The notes: generated from the letters alone by a model not told the origin. A stretch of DNA of 33,787 bases from a virus (IMGVR_UViG_2724679074_000004:1-33787); one strand, 5' to 3'; counted from the stretch's first letter, positions 1 to 21,829 are shown. Numbers and translations: made by a program.

Positions 1-8
1 ATATATAT

Positions 9-28
9 GAGGGTGTTAATGCACCCTC
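9..28. terminator. Hairpin (7-bp stem gagggtg/caccctc, 6-nt loop) followed by a T-run on the + strand, immediately beyond the tailspike stop; probable (bidirectional) terminator at the prophage edge
   Basis: Perfect inverted repeat read directly; atttttatta follows on + strand; on the minus strand it lies just 3' of the tailspike stop (36-38) but is followed by AT-rich rather than pure T sequence. Confidence 0.4.
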
Positions 29-35
29 ATTTTTA

Positions 36-2318
36 TTACGGACCGATTATAATCTGGTCAGATGGGCTATCACTGTCTGGCTTTGAAGTTCTCATCTTTA
101 ATTTGTTATCTGCACTAACCCACAAATATCTCCCATTGATTACTAGGTACCCATCAGAGTAGTTACCGTCGAAATTTATTCCTCCCTTAACCCTAGCTCC
201 GTTCCATCCAGACCCTGAAGCAAAGGATCCTTTTAGTTTGTTAGGTTCCATTTGCGGGTTGGTTATTGATCCAGCAAGAATAATACTTGATGATACAGAA
301 GATTTATCCCTACATCCCGCACCAATTATTAAACCATCCTGCGATTGCGCTTGAATAGTAATTGCCGATGTTGATTCGGATAAACTGTTTACTTCAACCT
401 TGTTGTTGCTTCCAATGGTGTAATCTACGCCTGTGACTGGATTTCTTACGCCAGCTCCGAATCTGCACGCTATGTTTATATTTGTACCTGTCCCAAGCCC
501 AGTGGTTTTCATCTTGAAATCACTGTCAATGGATCCAAGTACGCTGAATGACTTGCACATCCCCCTAACATCTGAGCCTACCAAATCTCTTATTTCCATA
601 GGTTCTTCCGGTGTATTTATATCTGTAAAAACACTATACGCACATCCCTGAAGAAATACCTGACCACCGCTTATGTTTGTTACAACTGAATTTAGTAGGC
701 CGTAAAACCATACGCCTCTGTTTACGGTCGATCTTGGTTTTTCTACAATAACACCATCAATTGTCATCCCCTTGTTCCAACAATAGTATGGAGTATATAA
801 TGCGTCCACAAACACACCATAATCACCTTGATTGCCAGTAGCCGTTGTATTATCAACCGTTATTCCTGAAATCTGCATCTTGGGACAACTCATAAACTTG
901 CATGCAGCGTTATCAGTAACTGATGATGACCCACCCACCCTTAAATCTCTAGCTCTAGATCGACCAAAACAATAGGTGTGATTTATTGATGATGGCTCCC
1001 CGACCCCAATAGAGTTGATGCTTTCAACGGTCGAATCATAGTTATAGCCAACGATAAGCCTATCAATTTCTAAATTGCATATTTTTGGGGTATCACACTG
1101 TCTAATCTCAAGGCGCTTTATTCTCCCCCCGCCACAAATAACAACATTTGGCACGAGATCTGATTTTACAATCCATGGATTTATGTGCGTGTAGTTTAGT
1201 CTTGCCTTAAGAAATATTCCAGTGCTGTTAATGCTATGTATCTTTGCCAACTCAAAGTAATATGGCTTAGCCTCAACTGAATACGCCCCGCTAGTGTTCT
1301 CAATCCTTATAACATCACCAACTGAGAATAAAGAAGTGTAATCTCCAGGGATGATGTAGTCATCATTATTTAAAGTGCCATTGTATTTAATTGCAGCTTG
1401 TAGCTCAATGACATCAGGGTTTTGATATGGAAATCTAGTTGGAGTGCTTAGTGTTAGCGAAGTTCCGCTTTTACCTGAAATATTTGAAATATCAACCCCC
1501 GTCTCATTACCTTGTGACGCACTTCCGCCATCGCCATCCCTCAACTTCAATGCAGCAGCGCCTCCAATAGAGAATGATGAGAAATTACCAGCTATGTTTG
1601 TTGTGCCAGCCGGCACAGATGACCATGGCAATGTTGTGCTTACTTTGTTTTTCTCTTTGAAATATTTACCCTGAATGATAAGTGAGAAATTTAGAAATGA
1701 AGATGGACTTACCTCAATATTTGCCGGAATATCTATTATAACTGGATTGCTAGTATAGGTACCATTCATGAATTTACAAGAAACACCCTTCTCAAACGCT
1801 GAGGTTATAGCGTTCCTAATGCTAGTAGTGTTATCAGCTATAGGTTTACCATTTGCATATCCATGCGCCTCTGGAGTCTCCCAGCCAAGCAGTGGATACA
1901 CATAGTCTGCAAAATCCTGAACACTTCCTCCATCTTCCATTCCTATGAAAGATGCTCCAGAATCTGAAGATAGCAATATTAATAGATTCCCAGGGTCTAC
2001 TTTTGATAGGTCGCCCCAATAGTATTGTTGTGAACCATATGTATCATACACCGCCATGCTGAAGTTCTGTTTGGTGATGAACTTCATAATTTGGCCGTTA
2101 TAAACAGGGAAGCCTCCAGCGTTAATGATGATTGGCTGAGAAACCTGAACCTCGGATCCATTCTCATTAACGGCATATACCGGAATTTGGTTAGCAGGAT
2201 TTACCGGGTCAGTGTCAGGGTTTCCGATATAGATTTTCCCGTTCGCCACTGATTTAAATGCTCGTGGCGCCGAAAAAGGTGTAGACGGCATAGAGACAAG
2301 GTAATTGGTGTCAGTCAT
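36..2318 (-). CDS. Tailspike protein: P22 gp9-like N-terminal head-binding domain fused to a divergent receptor-binding domain
   Basis: 760 aa ORF; first ~110 aa (SAPRAFKSVANGKIYIGNPDTDPVNPANQIPVY..) closely match the remembered P22 tailspike head-binding domain; remainder does not resemble the P22 domain; last gene of the late operon. Confidence 0.85.
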   Translation of the reverse strand: MTDTNYLVSMPSTPFSAPRAFKSVANGKIYIGNPDTDPVNPANQIPVYAVNENGSEVQVSQPIIINAGGFPVYNGQIMKFITKQNFSMAVYDTYGSQQYYWGDLSKVDPGNLLILLSSDSGASFIGMEDGGSVQDFADYVYPLLGWETPEAHGYANGKPIADNTTSIRNAITSAFEKGVSCKFMNGTYTSNPVIIDIPANIEVSPSSFLNFSLIIQGKYFKEKNKVSTTLPWSSVPAGTTNIAGNFSSFSIGGAAALKLRDGDGGSASQGNETGVDISNISGKSGTSLTLSTPTRFPYQNPDVIELQAAIKYNGTLNNDDYIIPGDYTSLFSVGDVIRIENTSGAYSVEAKPYYFELAKIHSINSTGIFLKARLNYTHINPWIVKSDLVPNVVICGGGRIKRLEIRQCDTPKICNLEIDRLIVGYNYDSTVESINSIGVGEPSSINHTYCFGRSRARDLRVGGSSSVTDNAACKFMSCPKMQISGITVDNTTATGNQGDYGVFVDALYTPYYCWNKGMTIDGVIVEKPRSTVNRGVWFYGLLNSVVTNISGGQVFLQGCAYSVFTDINTPEEPMEIRDLVGSDVRGMCKSFSVLGSIDSDFKMKTTGLGTGTNINIACRFGAGVRNPVTGVDYTIGSNNKVEVNSLSESTSAITIQAQSQDGLIIGAGCRDKSSVSSSIILAGSITNPQMEPNKLKGSFASGSGWNGARVKGGINFDGNYSDGYLVINGRYLWVSADNKLKMRTSKPDSDSPSDQIIIGP

Positions 2319-2418
2319 TTGATGTGCTCCTGGCGCAATTAGTCCCCACAGCAGAGCTGCGGCAAGCTATAGTTACATACCGAAATGGTACGATTGTTGA
2401 TTTATCCAGTAGGTTACG

Positions 2419-2826
2419 ATGCCATTCCACCCAACTGGTGAGGCATCAAGGATGTACAGCAAATACGACGAGGCGAAGTTTCACTTGAGACTTCCGCATG
2501 AACTCCACGCGAAAATTAAACAGCGCGCGAAGATGAATAACAGGTCACTGAACTCAGAGATAATTGCAGCGATTGAAGAATCATTGGCTAAACAAAGCTC
2601 TGCATCAGTTTACATTGACGATGCAGAGCGTATGCAGAACAACAATCTGATATGGTTAAGAAAATTGTCTTTGATACGCTCAAAGAGCTATATAAAAAAG
2701 ACAGCAGTTAACCATCAGTTACGGAGGATTTATGCAAAGAGATACGCTGAATATTGCGTTCTACATATTTGGTTTTTGCACGTTCCTGGTGTTTGCGAAG
2801 CTATTCTGACAACGCATCAGACTTAG
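2419..2826 (+). CDS. mnt: Mnt-like ribbon-helix-helix repressor (immI remnant); true start possibly the internal ATG at ~2452; C-terminal ~40 aa extension overlaps gp16 3' end
   Basis: Segment FHLRLPHELHAKIKQRAKMNNRSLNSEIIAAIEESL resembles the RHH N-terminus of P22 Mnt/Arc; divergent orientation between gene 16 and gene 9 homologs matches P22 mnt. Confidence 0.55.
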   Translation: MPFHPTGEASRMYSKYDEAKFHLRLPHELHAKIKQRAKMNNRSLNSEIIAAIEESLAKQSSASVYIDDAERMQNNNLIWLRKLSLIRSKSYIKKTAVNHQLRRIYAKRYAEYCVLHIWFLHVPGVCEAILTTHQT

Positions 2827-6857: not shown

Positions 6858-7313
6858 CTATCTCCCGTGATTCAGGAAGTCGATTAGTTCTTCGCGTGTG
6901 GCGCTATAAAAAGTCACGTCATCCACGCCTTTAAAGTATTTCTTGATGGTTCCGACACGCTTAAGGCCAATCATTGCGCAGTACATCTGACCGTGGCGGA
7001 ATTTGCGTGCAGCGAACGATGTGACGCACTGAACGGTGGTGTTAGTCAGAATGTATCGCCAGAACGCCAGCCCGATTTCCTTGCTGAAGCCACGAACCTC
7101 TGGCAGGTACATGGCGTGGCAATCGAATGTCAGCGGCTGAATCTCCTGATAGTAAACAATGCCGCCAAACTGACCGTGCACGTTAACCTCAAAGTAACGG
7201 CATTCAGGCTTGTAGTCGTATCCATCACCGTTGTTGCTTCCGGCAATAATGTCAGGGTGATTTCCGACTGCTTCGATCAGGTCGATATTTCGCGTTGGTT
7301 TGAACTGAATCAT
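6858..7313 (-). CDS. Head assembly/ejection-associated protein, P22 gp14-like
   Basis: 151 aa ORF located between tail needle and gp7 homologs exactly as gene 14 in P22-like genomes. Confidence 0.6.
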   Translation of the reverse strand: MIQFKPTRNIDLIEAVGNHPDIIAGSNNGDGYDYKPECRYFEVNVHGQFGGIVYYQEIQPLTFDCHAMYLPEVRGFSKEIGLAFWRYILTNTTVQCVTSFAARKFRHGQMYCAMIGLKRVGTIKKYFKGVDDVTFYSATREELIDFLNHGR

Positions 7314-8266
7314 TACTGCTCCGCGATTATCTTGATGGTTGTGGCAGTAAACGCCGCACCATTTGACTGAATGGTTAACGTACTGCCATTTGTGGCAAGA
7401 AAGCCGTCTTTATCCACACTGAAGAACGTAGCTAACAGGATGTTATCGGTTGTTGTCGCCGCATTGCGACTGCTGACCAACGTGTCAGGAACAGAGCCGG
7501 AAAAGGTTAGCTGCATTGACCTGTTTGCGGTTCCACTGGGCCACGTCCCGACAATCGACAACTTGAAGAACAAGGTTTTGTTCTCGTTGAACACAACCAT
7601 CTTGTTGTTAACGGTGTCGAAGAGTGGTGCCAGCGTGCCGGATGACGGCGTGAGCGTTTTCAGCAGGCTAACAAGGTTAGTCGGCGCTGTCGGGATGGTT
7701 ACAGATACTCCTGAGTAAACAACCTCTGATTTCTTGCGCGTGGTGGCATACTCAAGCGCAGATATTCTTGTTGAGTGATCACCAACTGTGCTTTGTAGCG
7801 TCGAAATACTTCCTTCTGCCGCTGTGAGCCTGGTATCAAGTGCGTCGATATCGGTTGTATTCTGAGTTATGCGCGCATCATGGTTTGCTAACTCAGATTC
7901 ATTGGCAGCAATTCGCGTCTCGTGATCAGCCAGCTCTGTTTCAGCAGCCGTAATCCTTGTTTCATGATCTGCAAGAGTGCTTTCCGCTGCTGCAATTCTA
8001 TTTTCATGATTGATGAGAGTTGCTTCAGCAGCTTCAATTCTGGATTCATGGTCTGCAAGGGTGACATCCTGCTCATCATTCTTCACCTGTGCATCATAAG
8101 CCCCCTTCCCTGCTTCGTTGGCCTTGTTAGCCACATTACCAACATCAGTACCCTGTGCAATAACGTAAAGCAGATACGACTGAGAGAAGATATTGCGTGG
8201 AAGGACTGATGTATCGAGCCGCGTAGCCTGGATGATTACTGGCTCATTGAGATTCGAATCAGCCAT
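7313..8266 (-). CDS. Tail needle (plug) protein, P22 gp26-like, with extended coiled-coil repeats and a C-terminal knob-like domain
   Basis: N-terminus [43 protein letters not shown] matches P22 gp26; repeated LADHE(T/S)RI..AAE heptad-like units; 317 aa vs 233 aa in P22, suggesting an Sf6-like knob. Confidence 0.85.
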
Positions 8267-9684
8267 TACTCAATCCTTATCTGGCAGCCAGACAGAGTTA
8301 CAGGTGACTTCGTGATAACGCGCAATTTGAAGCCAACATTTTTCCTGATGCGCCCGACTCGCTTCCACAAAACGCGCTTGTCGTAAACGAACGGTTCATT
8401 CTGCTCAATCATCTGCTCACGCCCGTAATTTATGCCGTCAGTGGTTGCAGAGAGGAACAGTCGGTCGGCGTACTGCGCAACGCCAGTTGACGATTCAACC
8501 TCAAGGTCGAAAACTCTGGCGTTATCTGCTTTGAACAACGGAGTAAACAGCAGGTGTTCCTGCTGCTTGTCGTACTGGCTGCTGATATCGAACTGCAATT
8601 TGCCGGTAACCGATTCCAGCTTATCGCCGCACGTTATCTGATTGCCTTCGTAAATGAAGTCGATAGCGCGGTACACATCGTCATACAGACCTGTTTTCAG
8701 CACACACCATTGCGGACCATTGGCGCTTGAAGATGCGTCGTACACGAGAACATGGCGCGGAAGGTGGATAATCAGCAACTCATGAGCATCAAATCGCAGC
8801 GATTCCATCACACCATCAGCCAGTTCATCAGTAGTGTAGGAGCGGAGGATTTTCTCAATGCTCGCGCTGGCGATTGGTGACACCTGACCGGAGCCGATGA
8901 TGTATACAGACGGCGCACCTGTTGCCGGATTGCTGATGAACGCATACGAATCAGCAAACGGCGTTTTGCAGTAAGTCCCGGCGATGCCTTTTTGCACCAT
9001 CAGTGATGGCTGTGCGACATACAAAGCAGCACCAACGGTGGTTGCACCAGTCAGGGAAAAATACTCAATCGTCGATGAACCAAAGCAGACGATGAAGTCT
9101 CGCCATGTCCCGATACCGATGATGCCGTCCGGCTGAGACTCGGCACGATATTGTGCGCTGTAACGGTCAGGATGCGATTCGTCTTCAAGGTCAGTGATAA
9201 ACCATGAATCAGTGCCGTCTTTTGACCACGCATAACGCCCACGTAAACGCGTAATGTCGCGGACTGAACCTAACTCATACTGAGTGAATCCGCTGTCTGT
9301 AGGCCAGTTTGAGACGGTTTTAACCGTGCCATCATAGCGATACTCTACCAGTTGACCATTAACGCCTACAGCCTGAGATGTCCTACCGTGCGCCATTGAT
9401 ACGCGACCACTTCCGGCAACATCACCGACTTCACTTTCTCCTTTGTAGAGCTTGCCACCACACACGCGATAAACAGCATTCTGCGCCATGTTGTACTCGA
9501 CGCCGCGAGATACGCCGTTCACATCAGAACGTTTGGCAATGCCCGGGAATGAGCGAAGATATCCGCTGCTGTTCAGGATTTCTTTGGGTGTAGCCAGCAT
9601 ATTCACTGGCAGATAGTCGATATAGTCGGCGTTTCGAAAGTCTTTTCCGACACCTTTCATAAGCGGAAGTTGCTGAATCGGCAT
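8266..9684 (-). CDS. Tail hub protein, P22 gp10-like
   Basis: 472 aa, identical in length to P22 gp10; position between gp4 and gp26 homologs. Confidence 0.8.
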
Positions 9685-10184
9685 TATTCGCTCCCGTTAT
9701 CGCAAGGTTCCTTCCGGTGGAAGTAATTCCAACCGTTCCACTTCGCCAACTGATTACCACTACCAACAGGCATACGGTTTGGATAACCTGACTTACATTT
9801 AGCGGCTTTTGCCCTGTCCATTGCAGACAGTTTGACGAGTCGCTCTTTCCCGTATCTGGCAGTGGTTATAAGTTTTGCAGACGCTTCCAGCGCATAATCC
9901 GGAGCAATGCAGCAGGCAAGGTTGAAAATGACAGCATTTATAGCGTTATTTGATAAGCCGTGCTCATCGCCAGGATCCGGAGCAACATCTGCATCAGCAA
10001 AAATGTAGCCAACGTTGATCCCAGGTGACGCATCACCGCCAAGCCATTCAGCCATCATCATTTCAAGGTCGTTGACGCCGTCTTCCATAGACTGCGGTTC
10101 GACATCGGTTAACGTGGCATTTGATGCCACACCGAGCTTACGTAATGCCGCAAGAACTAAATCACCCTTCGTTGTCAGGTTCAT
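9684..10184 (-). CDS. Tail accessory / portal-closure protein, P22 gp4-like (start chosen at internal Met giving 166 aa)
   Basis: Sequence [43 protein letters not shown] matches remembered P22 gp4; ORF track extends to 10259 but 166 aa equals the P22 gp4 length. Confidence 0.8.
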
Positions 10185-10398
10185 CTGCTGCCGCCTTAGG
10201 TTTTCGACCAGGCTTTTTACGCTGTTTTTCTTCTGGATCTGGCTCTGGATCTGCGACATCCTTCAAAAGGTCATCAGGATGTGAAAACCAACCAGCATCC
10301 AGATATTCCTGAAGCTCTTCGGCTTTCACGATTTCAAAGTCGTATCCAACGCCTTTCCATTTCTTCATGTCGCCATGACGAAAGATCATGTGTGTCAT
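10162..10398 (-). CDS. Small conserved hypothetical protein between coat and gp4 genes
   Basis: ORF with GGAG 6 nt upstream of ATG ([24 protein letters not shown]..); acidic C-terminus with lysine-rich tail; overlaps gp4 start. Confidence 0.5.
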
Positions 10399-19757: not shown

Positions 19758-20279
19758 CTAAATGGATAATTGCATGTCAAGGCTTTTAACAGCAACATGC
19801 TTAACTTTCTCAACACGTTTACGCATTTTGAAAGCATTTTGCATTGGCTGGTACAAAACAAATAACGACGCTTTCAGGATGTCGTCAATTTCGTTTCTAC
19901 AGGTTGCCAGTGAAGGTTTTCTCCATCCCTCGCCACCACGTCCACACATCTTGCGTGGCTTTGCAGTCGCGTGATAGTAGGATGCAATTGCTCGCTTAGA
20001 TGAACCATGAGCGTAGTAGCTGAGGAGGATGCCAAAGGCTTTCTTGTCAATGTACATGACGGAATCGACGACCTGAGAAATCAACATTCCATCATCATCA
20101 TTGCACATTGGCCTTGTCATAACTCTTCCCGGCTCTACGCTCTCCATGAACTTCGCTATTACGCTGCTCATGCGCTTTTCCAGACGACCTGAATAAACCC
20201 ATGCGCCCCACAGTTCAAGCCAGCAATTCAGCCAATCGTGCTGTTCTTTGGTGAGGTTTAGTTCTCTTATGCTCATCAT
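19758..20279 (-). CDS. Late-gene antiterminator Q (phage 82 / Phage_antitermQ-type, gene 23 position)
   Basis: 173 aa ORF directly downstream of the nin genes and upstream of the late leader/lysis genes; resemblance to 82-type Q proteins is from memory. Confidence 0.55.
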   Translation of the reverse strand: MMSIRELNLTKEQHDWLNCWLELWGAWVYSGRLEKRMSSVIAKFMESVEPGRVMTRPMCNDDDGMLISQVVDSVMYIDKKAFGILLSYYAHGSSKRAIASYYHATAKPRKMCGRGGEGWRKPSLATCRNEIDDILKASLFVLYQPMQNAFKMRKRVEKVKHVAVKSLDMQLSI

Positions 20280-20461
20280 CTTCCCTTTTTGCCTGGCGTT
20301 ACCATCAGGACGCCGTTAACTATTACGTGACGCTCACCTTTGCTGTCTCGGTTGTACTTGAGCACTGTTCCTCTTGCACAGGAAAGCATCCTCGCCACTT
20401 CGGTCTGATTGCCTCGTGTCTGGATAAGAAGCTCTGGTATCGTTTGAATTGTGGCGTTCAT
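20276..20461 (-). CDS. ninH: NinH
   Basis: 61 aa; ..GNQTEVARML.C.RGTV.KY....G..H.IVN.VLMV.. matches lambda/P22 NinH. Confidence 0.85.
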   Translation of the reverse strand: MNATIQTIPELLIQTRGNQTEVARMLSCARGTVLKYNRDSKGERHVIVNGVLMVTPGKKGR

Positions 20462-20820
20462 GCGTTCTCCAGTTCGGTGATTTTTATTCCAAGTCTTCCA
20501 CCTGGTACTTTCACACCACGAATTACGCGAATGTCATCGAATTGCTCGTCGTCTTCCGCAAATCCGGCGTGGATAAGGGAGTCGAGTAAACCTTTCAGGA
20601 TGTTGTCGAGGTCGCGGCGGCGGGAGTCTGGAACGTCTGCGATGACTTTGATACGGAGTCGTGATTTGGTGAAAATGTCTAACTTGAGTTGGCGGATGAT
20701 TTGCTGAACGTCTTTTCGGTATTTCTGGCCTTTATCGCTGATGTAGTATTGGCTTCCCCGTCTTCGCCAGTAGGTATTCACCGATGGCGGGTATGGAAGC
20801 ACAAACTGATATTCGTTCAT
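20458..20820 (-). CDS. rusA: RusA-family Holliday junction resolvase
   Basis: 120 aa; LPYPPSVN.YW....., DVPDSRRRDLDNILKGLLDSL matches the RusA catalytic motif region. Confidence 0.9.
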   Translation of the reverse strand: MNEYQFVLPYPPSVNTYWRRRGSQYYISDKGQKYRKDVQQIIRQLKLDIFTKSRLRIKVIADVPDSRRRDLDNILKGLLDSLIHAGFAEDDEQFDDIRVIRGVKVPGGRLGIKITELENA

Positions 20821-21107
20821 GACTTAATCTTCCCCTCCTTCAGCAGTATCGCCTGCGTCCTGATCACGCCTTCGAGGTGGTAAAGTCTGGCGTCTTTGTT
20901 GTCGAGATTATGGGTGCGTCGGTCGATTTCATCGTGACACGCGCTACAAGCCCATGCGCCGATCAGGTCGTCAGGCTTCATTCCCGTTCCGCAAATTCCA
21001 GCCATCCGGTAATGTGCCAGAACTGTAGTTTCAGGATTGCCATTGCATACGCCGTAAATACGTACCTGGCATTCTCTGCCGCGTGCTTCTTTGCGTAGGT
21101 TAGCCAT
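20817..21107 (-). CDS. YbcO-like (DUF1364) putative nuclease
   Basis: 96 aa; RGRECQVRI.GVCNGNPETTVLAH.R..G.CGTG.KP.DL....ACSACHDEIDRRTH matches remembered DLP12 YbcO. Confidence 0.7.
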   Translation of the reverse strand: MANLRKEARGRECQVRIYGVCNGNPETTVLAHYRMAGICGTGMKPDDLIGAWACSACHDEIDRRTHNLDNKDARLYHLEGVIRTQAILLKEGKIKS

Positions 21108-21829
21108 TAAGCAGCCTCCCCTGTTACTTTCAGCATTCCGTTATCGAGCAGCTTTCTGGTCAGCCACTGTTGACCGCGCCCGGTGATTTTTGTGGTGAAC
21201 GATATCTGTATTCCGTGATTTGTGTTGACCGCTGTTTCTTTCACTGTGAAATAGCCGCGCTCCATATATTCCTGCATTGGCACATTTCGCCGGGAACCTG
21301 AAGCAATAAGGATTTTGTGATCGCGCATCCATGCAAACAGTTTGTTTTGACCAATACCGACAACCTTTGCAAAGTTTCCAATCAAAATTCCGCTGGCCTC
21401 GCCAACGCGATCGGCAAACTCAACTTTAGGTGCGGCAATTGCGAGCTGGTTTTCCAGTTGCATTTTCTGCTCAGCAAGATCAGCAGCAAGGCGCAACGCT
21501 TCCGGTAGCGTTTTGGGGATATTAACCGCAGCTTCTTCAAGCTCTCGCCAGCGGTCAACAAGGCGAGCGGTGAATTCCGGCGACAACTGGGCTACAACGA
21601 CAATACTGTCTCGCTTTCCTTGTTCGCCCTCGAAGACGTAATGCTCGTACTGAACATTGAACCCTAAGTTATTGATTCTTTCGGAAACCTCAATTTGAGG
21701 AAGCCGGATAACACCATTTTTAGCCAGCGTTTCGATGGTACGTTTCACATTGTCATGACGCTTACCCACCAACTCAGCGATTTCAATGCTTGTCATTTTG
21801 ATGGCATTGCCATTCATTAACTCACTCAT
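21107..21829 (-). CDS. Rha-family phage regulatory protein / antirepressor-like (N-terminal Rha domain, C-terminal antirepressor-type domain)
   Basis: 240 aa; family assignment from overall resemblance to Rha/KilAC antirepressors recalled from memory; located in nin region. Confidence 0.55.
   Translation of the reverse strand: MSELMNGNAIKMTSIEIAELVGKRHDNVKRTIETLAKNGVIRLPQIEVSERINNLGFNVQYEHYVFEGEQGKRDSIVVVAQLSPEFTARLVDRWRELEEAAVNIPKTLPEALRLAADLAEQKMQLENQLAIAAPKVEFADRVGEASGILIGNFAKVVGIGQNKLFAWMRDHKILIASGSRRNVPMQEYMERGYFTVKETAVNTNHGIQISFTTKITGRGQQWLTRKLLDNGMLKVTGEAA

Follow-up and report, generated by a model that had tools for sequence, protein, structure and literature searches.

The tailspike considered here is encoded at the beginning of a viral DNA of 33,787 nucleotides (IMGVR_UViG_2724679074_000004:1-33787; this whole stretch is called the window), and it can be compared with P22 gp9, with depolymerases of Klebsiella phages and with the spikes of two recently described P22-like phages, phiHS3 and phiHS4. 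P22 gp9 is an endorhamnosidase whose substrate is the Salmonella O-antigen, and the P22 spike docks onto the gp4/gp10 hub via its head-binding domain. The tailspike shares with P22 the gene position, the hub partners gp4, gp10 and gp26 and the general beta-helix architecture of the spike, whereas its predicted substrate is a capsule. A P22 head-binding domain on a capsule depolymerase has a precedent in P22-like phages whose spikes are capsule-specific, such as CUS-3 with its K1 endosialidase; the catalytic module of CUS-3 is, however, a sialidase beta-propeller, directed against a group 2 capsule, and differs from that of the tailspike.

The enzymes closest to the tailspike module, P560dep and Dpo43, are second receptor-binding proteins of Przondovirus (T7-like) phages and carry a short N-terminal peptide docking on the first fibre, in place of which the tailspike has its P22 head-binding domain. 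Przondovirus phages are lytic Klebsiella phages with a G+C content of ~52-53%, whereas the tailspike belongs to a temperate phage of E. coli/Klebsiella and has 41%. P560dep and Dpo43 of phage IME205, when expressed, stripped K47 capsule, as followed by turbidity, Alcian blue and serum sensitisation (PMC7034173; PMC9437526). A sibling system is phiHS3, a P22-like phage whose spike (CDS_0017) clusters with Przondovirus proteins and has behind it an O-antigen-ligase-like gene and the gene of another spike (bioRxiv 10.64898/2026.05.19.726188); as judged from this published description, its gene order is that of the cassette described below.

The gene is that of a P22-like (gp9-family) tailspike of a temperate P22-like prophage, and its product is probably a K47-type capsule-depolymerase tailspike on a P22-like virion, with a module gained in a mobile cassette. 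In RefSeq, the identical protein is annotated just as 'phage tailspike protein'. Residues 4-110 matched the Head_binding family (Pfam PF09008; 150.7 bits at a cutoff of 24, E 2e-44), and residues 1-109 were 60% identical to residues 1-111 of P22 gp9 (667 residues, NC_002371; BLASTP, E 5e-36). The solved head-binding domains 7sg7, 2xc1, 1lkt and 8tvr matched the same N-terminus (phmmer, PDB sequences; E 1e-33 to 2e-40). BLASTP detected no significant similarity to gp9 beyond residue 109, the best match there covering 88 residues with E 0.048. By analogy with P22, and given the computed homology of residues 1-110, the best-supported reading is that this domain would dock a presumed spike trimer on the gp4/gp10 tail hub.

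Residues 165-760 matched residues 64-661 of chain A of 7VUL, the three-chain entry for the depolymerase of Klebsiella phage P560 (P560dep), with E 7e-181 (phmmer, PDB sequences), the identity of the module to Dpo43/P560dep being ~45-49% and the homology spanning the whole module. In phage genomes searched with tblastn, the module was found in Klebsiella Przondovirus phages such as IME205, SH-KP152226, P560 and Oda, where it belongs to the second tail-fibre gene (43-49% identity), in Klebsiella phage RCIP0012 (160 kb genome; 49% identity over 81%) and likewise in Escherichia phage Mimir124; the corresponding value for the phiHS3 spike, compared with an Ackermannviridae spike, is ~50% over 81%. 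The tailspike ends in ...IIIGP, and the C-terminus ...GVVIGP encoded by the Dpo43 cloning primer coincides with the end of 7VUL in the alignment. An AlphaFold monomer model of residues 111-760, built from a 32-sequence alignment, folded as a beta-helix with a predicted local distance difference test score (pLDDT) of 88 and a predicted template-modelling score (pTM) of 0.83. The next-best structural neighbours found with Foldseek were LKA1 gp49, phi297, AP22 gp54, K64-1 S2-4 and the K1 and K5 lyases, all of them phage tailspike depolymerases and lyases, and the P22 tailspike followed at rank 42 with a template-modelling (TM) score of 0.22. The module is thus predicted, from homology and from the model, to be a right-handed beta-helix depolymerase of the Dpo43/P560dep family, unlike the P22 endorhamnosidase except in general fold. 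No Pfam domain was found in residues 111-760. PHROG matches, including one named 'colanic acid degradation', were confined to the N-terminal ~110-200 residues, and this label was rejected as a clue to the enzyme module since the match covers the N-terminal part only.

An earlier note made from the DNA alone had proposed a mosaic, in which a P22-type head-binding domain of ~110 residues precedes a longer and unrelated receptor-binding module, probably with a distinct glycan depolymerase specificity. The PF09008 and BLASTP matches, the homology to 7VUL, the beta-helix model and the Foldseek ranking support such a modular swap, and the part behind the head-binding domain is indeed longer (~650 residues in the tailspike vs ~557 in P22). 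The model showed a beta-helix, and the receptor module did not align full-length with that of P22. The description as unrelated holds for sequence and close structure, but not for the general fold class, as both modules are right-handed beta-helices.

Two tandem insertion domains of ~72 residues each were identified in the module. They are paralogous according to hhalign (probability 96%, E 4e-9), a relation visible at the profile level only, as BLASTP gave no match between the two segments. Non-helix beta elements lie at residues 112-260 of the model. DepoCatalog places Dpo43 in its 'double insertion domain' class 2D, marked by a pair of such domains close to the N-terminal cap (PMC13385381), with which the tandem arrangement of the tailspike agrees; the insertion domains may serve to bind glycans.

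When 5.8 billion proteins were searched with a profile, the module family came to 33 clusters at 90% identity, and no remote relatives beyond these were gained. Across 32 family sequences, ~60 positions were invariant, among them acidic, Tyr, Arg and Lys residues in the beta-helix core. With a numbering that corresponds to the alignment position plus 110, they include D276, R295, D335, R338, E340, Y354, E356, R420, D469, K474, Y500, D505, Y511, R534, E575, D578 and D671, and the polar ones can be named, by inference from conservation, as candidate substrate-site residues. For the catalytic residues and the cleavage chemistry of the Dpo43/P560dep family, no published account was found in the literature; one review gives P560dep as 'lyase, to be published', without data.

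Within the family, the module stands behind different N-termini. The P22 head-binding domain is present in WP_062810277.1 and P0013, the TSP1/Gp66 tail-spike N-terminal domain (Pfam Tail_spike_N) in P0003, P0005 and P0012, a tail-collar fibre N-terminus in P0014 and a short peptide in P0020 (a Przondovirus second fibre), the N-termini of the others being unrecognised. According to the BLASTP start points of 33 relatives, sharing begins at about residues 104-154 of the tailspike for most of them, and at residue 131 for the closest group, which comprises E. coli and K. pneumoniae prophages with 61-63% identity. A different phage, represented by a metagenome contig (SRR21633404_3931; L006:5622-10355), encodes two divergent spikes of 768 and 784 residues, both with a P22 head-binding domain and one with the same depolymerase module (48-54% identity); a dihydrofolate reductase gene adjoins them.

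Hosts were screened among 5,426 complete E. coli genomes, three of which contained the spike gene (8GC, EC3 and AR Bank #0346; 99.9-100% identity). EC3 has a Klebsiella-type group 1 capsule locus (K locus; L004:9769-41498) with galF, wzi-wza-wzb-wzc, wbaP, glycosyltransferase genes, wzy, a flippase-type gene, gnd, rmlBADC and ugd. It is flanked by copies of IS1, and between galF and wzi stands a pseudogene of the PAP2 phosphatase family. K47 polysaccharide is reported to contain glucuronic acid, consistent with the ugd and rml genes of this locus. Proteins named from K. pneumoniae include some that are identical, or at least 90% identical, to the Wzy of the locus. The serotype-specific 9 kb of this locus was present in 14 of the 5,426 genomes, including all three lysogens and E. 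coli HS (99.9% identity), the comparison of lysogen K loci being one of complete E. coli genomes. Kaptive types the HS locus as Klebsiella K47, and EC3 is listed among K47 E. coli strains with an O-locus deletion (bioRxiv 10.64898/2026.05.19.726188). In the same study, an HS capsule-locus mutant was fully resistant to phiHS3, and phiHS3 formed plaques on a K47 strain of K. pneumoniae. A K47-type capsule is therefore the presumed target, on the basis of the homology to the validated K47 depolymerases Dpo43/P560dep and of the K47 locus found in all complete E. coli lysogens. The earlier note had left the target as O-antigen or capsule; of these, a group 1 capsule of the Klebsiella K47 type is the most likely, and the O-antigen is disfavoured.

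Several points weigh against a K47 specificity. The identity to the characterised enzymes is just ~45-49%, a distance at which specificity can shift, and the catalytic residues for 7VUL are absent from the published literature. The 14 E. coli genomes with K47 may belong to a single clone, in which case the association in three of three lysogens would not represent three independent events; its use as strong statistics was rejected for this reason. P560dep hit a KL169 strain, not K47, in the DepoCatalog panel (PMC13385381), and among K47 strains one subset is sensitive to Dpo42 and another to Dpo43 (PMC7034173).

These same observations (the low identity, the reassignment of P560dep to KL169 in one panel and the two sensitivity subsets of K47 strains) favour an alternative in which the fold is the same but the tailspike depolymerises a capsule or exopolysaccharide other than canonical K47, such as one K47 sub-type, KL169 or another acidic polysaccharide. 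The second depolymerase-like protein of the cassette could then be the K47-acting one. This alternative is unlikely, given that every complete E. coli lysogen has the K47 locus and that K47 capsule is required by the sibling phiHS3, which has the same order of spike, O-antigen-ligase-like gene and second spike.

Much less probable is an O-antigen endoglycosidase like the classical P22-family tailspikes, acting for example on the O9/OL3 polymannose of the HS lineage. The position of the gene is that of gp9, for which O-antigen is the usual receptor in P22-like phages, and the HS lineage is O9; the module is nevertheless homologous to capsule depolymerases and to no O-antigen tailspike. Moreover, the O8/O9-type O-antigen locus beside the EC3 K locus is truncated by IS1, a disruption that argues against an O-antigen receptor, and an O-locus deletion is listed for EC3 in the preprint.

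The probable K47-type capsule-depolymerase tailspike appears to have been assembled by exchange of more than its own module. Similarity of the window to the E. coli P22-like phage IME10, to which positions 2376-22620 (portal, terminase, coat and ejection genes) are 96% identical at the DNA level, ends at nucleotide 2376, upstream of the tailspike start codon. A stretch from nucleotide 2400 down to 2035 is shared with the spike gene of phiHS4, a prophage of E. coli HS (spike WP_000132706.1, 636 residues; L005:5374-7284). The two proteins are ~99% identical over residues 1-94 and unrelated beyond (BLASTP), so the recombination junction with phiHS4 is placed, by sequence comparison, at nucleotide 2035 (codon ~94), inside the head-binding domain. 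The swap that the earlier note had set at residue ~110 thus stands as a modular exchange, with its junction relative to phiHS4 shifted into the head-binding domain. Similarity to HS returns ~4.7 kb further downstream (position ~5342 of L001, the EC3 locus). The block replaced in between consists of the spike from codon ~95, an opposite-strand gene of 421 codons and a gene of 436 codons, and reaches past window position 1.

The 421-residue product is a membrane protein with a weak Wzy_C/O-antigen-ligase match (Pfam, E 5e-5, below cutoff). The 436-residue product matched Beta_helix (Pfam, E 3e-11), and its residues 84-324 are 34-35% identical to Dpo42/Dep42, the K47 depolymerase that forms the first fibre of the Przondovirus phages with Dpo43-type second fibres. 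With a spike module like Dpo43 and a 436-residue protein like Dpo42/Dep42, the prophage encodes predicted relatives of the two K47 depolymerases known from Klebsiella phage IME205; a second depolymerase-like protein beside the first is also the arrangement of the dual-tailspike systems of phiHS3 and Przondovirus type. G+C content is 0.40-0.41 across the spike gene and 0.39-0.41 in all three cassette genes, vs ~0.50 in virion genes. The swapped unit is this three-gene cassette, which is larger than the spike module alone. The phiHS4 prophage resides in the same K47 E. coli lineage and shares the small downstream gene (WP_000555017.1), but its spike has an unrelated 540-residue beta-helix module (Pfam Beta_helix/NosD), and no Wzy_C-like or second-spike gene lies alongside; cured HS was not infected by phiHS4 (bioRxiv 10.64898/2026.05.19.726188). 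Between the convergent spike and Wzy_C-like genes of the window lies a terminator-like, G+C-rich hairpin, at the position where the P22 annotation has a terminator between gene 9 and gtrC; as terminator-like sites were not more numerous than in shuffled sequences, the case for this hairpin is one of position only.

In the assembly collection, 174 blocks contain the exact 760-residue sequence, the organisms named being E. coli, Shigella flexneri and K. pneumoniae. A phiHS3-related 'Shigella flexneri' prophage may correspond to the Shigella flexneri protein in the 90% cluster of the tailspike, the strain name being unmatched. Ten loci from assemblies carrying the exact protein (L012-L021) were compared. 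Their spike genes vary by 1-2 of 2,283 nucleotides, and the three-gene cassette is present in all ten, with the Wzy_C-like gene truncated in two and the Beta_helix gene, located two genes downstream of the spike in each locus, split in one. The surrounding P22-like backbones vary in ejection-protein lengths, needle type and immI content, and three chromosomal integration sites were found, argW/yfdC, dacD and ybhB-bioA. For phiHS3, integration was reported at the third of these, beside ybhC, which is also the site of the prophage of locus L019. The dacD location in EC3 was considered as a rearrangement; this was rejected, dacD being a recurrent integration site. In two loci the flanks are not those of E. 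coli (identity to its argW flank 73-84%, dacD 72.6%; flank G+C content 0.55-0.56), and the hosts are probably Klebsiella; assemblies GCA_034082005.1 and GCA_024159945.1 count among the probable Klebsiella lysogens. In one of the two loci, the probable K. pneumoniae prophage L021, the virion genes are 97-98% identical to those of the EC3 prophage. L021 also contains two reverse-transcriptase genes of equal length (PF00078, 495 residues; L021:15484-16971 and 19932-21419), one beside the cassette and the other beside dacD, which may be group II introns.

A near-invariant spike, with 1-2 nucleotide differences, on varied backbones, at three sites and between E. coli and non-E. coli flanks implies very recent cross-genus spread. 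These differences across flank types, together with the near-identity of the L021 and EC3 virion genes, also lead to a tentative proposal, held with slightly less than even confidence, that a single P22-like temperate lineage with a two-depolymerase cassette now lysogenises both E. coli and K. pneumoniae, its host range being set by the shared K47 capsule and not by genus. A non-functional relic (a defective prophage whose spike is idle in infection, or a module that binds without cleaving) is highly improbable: in EC3 and 8GC the Arc gene next to the spike carries an annotated frameshift and the neighbouring cassette genes are damaged in some loci, but the spike reading frame is intact and almost invariant in ten loci on different backbones at three sites, indicating recent active spread, ~60 positions are invariant in 32 family members and the virion module is complete.

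The remaining context of the tailspike gene, whose features are collected in Table 1, is that of a P22-like prophage. In the order of open reading frames, the ejection-protein genes precede the spike gene in a complete P22-type virion module. The Arc-family gene is the sole remnant of the P22 immI region, ant, mnt and sieA being absent there; the copies of EC3 and 8GC are frameshifted, and other loci have intact Arc, Bro-N/antirepressor and SieA genes at this place. The needle protein of the window has 317 residues and an Sf6-type knob, whereas EC3 and 8GC encode a 233-residue protein at that position. The window is therefore a backbone variant like L015, L017 or L020, unlike EC3 or 8GC.

Table 1. 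Features of the tailspike gene, its product and its surroundings (window coordinates unless a locus is named; aa, amino acids)
Feature	Position	Strand	Basis
Complete tailspike gene, 760 aa, intact open reading frame (stop codon 36-38)	36..2318	minus	List of open reading frames; exact protein is RefSeq WP_062810277.1
P22-type head-binding domain, aa 1-110	1989..2318	minus	Pfam PF09008 and alignment to P22 gp9
Linker and helical neck/cap, aa 111-179	1782..1988	minus	AlphaFold pLDDT, secondary structure, BLASTP start points of relatives
Predicted receptor-binding/depolymerase module, right-handed parallel beta-helix, aa 165-760	39..1826	minus	Homology to P560 depolymerase (7VUL; Dpo43 type)
Insertion domain 1, aa 234-305	1404..1619	minus	Profile-profile alignment to aa 315-385
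Insertion domain 2, aa 315-385	1164..1376	minus	Paralogue of insertion domain 1
Stretch matching the E. coli HS prophage (phiHS4) tailspike, DNA 98-99% identical	2035..2400	minus	megablast against E. coli genomes; blastn of L001 against L005
Terminator-like G+C-rich hairpin between convergent spike and Wzy_C-like genes	7..30	unstranded	Terminator scan
Cassette genes of 421 and 436 aa	L001:5287-8000 (E. coli EC3), immediately before window position 1	421-aa gene opposite to spike	
Arc-family ribbon-helix-helix gene, directly upstream of spike gene	2419..2826	plus	Pfam Arc, E 2e-14
Needle with Sf6-type knob	7313-8266	minus	Pfam Phage_tail_NK, E 3e-107
gp10-like gene	8266-9684	minus	Pfam Phage_stabilise, E 7e-301
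gp4-like gene	9684-10259	minus	Pfam P22_Tail-4, E 4e-57

According to the proposed mechanism, the spike, presumed trimeric as in P22, would be anchored by residues 1-110 to the gp4/gp10 hub. A flexible linker (residues 111-132, predicted to be disordered from the low pLDDT of the AlphaFold model) and a helical cap would pass into the beta-helix, which would bind and cleave a K47-type group 1 capsule, so that the virion could tunnel to the outer membrane, where the needle and the ejection proteins would act next. The module would have come by recombination within the low-G+C cassette of tailspike, Wzy_C-like membrane protein and Dpo42-like beta-helix protein, and this cassette would retarget P22-like phages to K47-capsulated E. 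coli and Klebsiella.

The swap is of a classical, well-understood kind, and the K47 E. coli theme is already contained in the May 2026 preprint on the sibling phages (bioRxiv 10.64898/2026.05.19.726188). As a divergent counterpart (~45-49% identity) to the solved but unpublished 7VUL, the tailspike helps to define conserved and possibly catalytic residues, and it is a candidate K47 depolymerase, K47 being the capsule of the epidemic carbapenem-resistant ST11 clone of K. pneumoniae. The picture that emerges is of an E. coli lineage with an acquired Klebsiella K47 capsule, parasitised by P22-like phages that have acquired the matching depolymerase module of Klebsiella phages. The tailspike thereby illustrates that host range in Enterobacteriaceae follows the surface glycan and not the genus, a general principle of textbook standing. 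If the tentative proposal of a single lineage lysogenising E. coli and K. pneumoniae is true, the spike would, via lateral transduction by these phages, open direct chromosomal gene flow between both genera.

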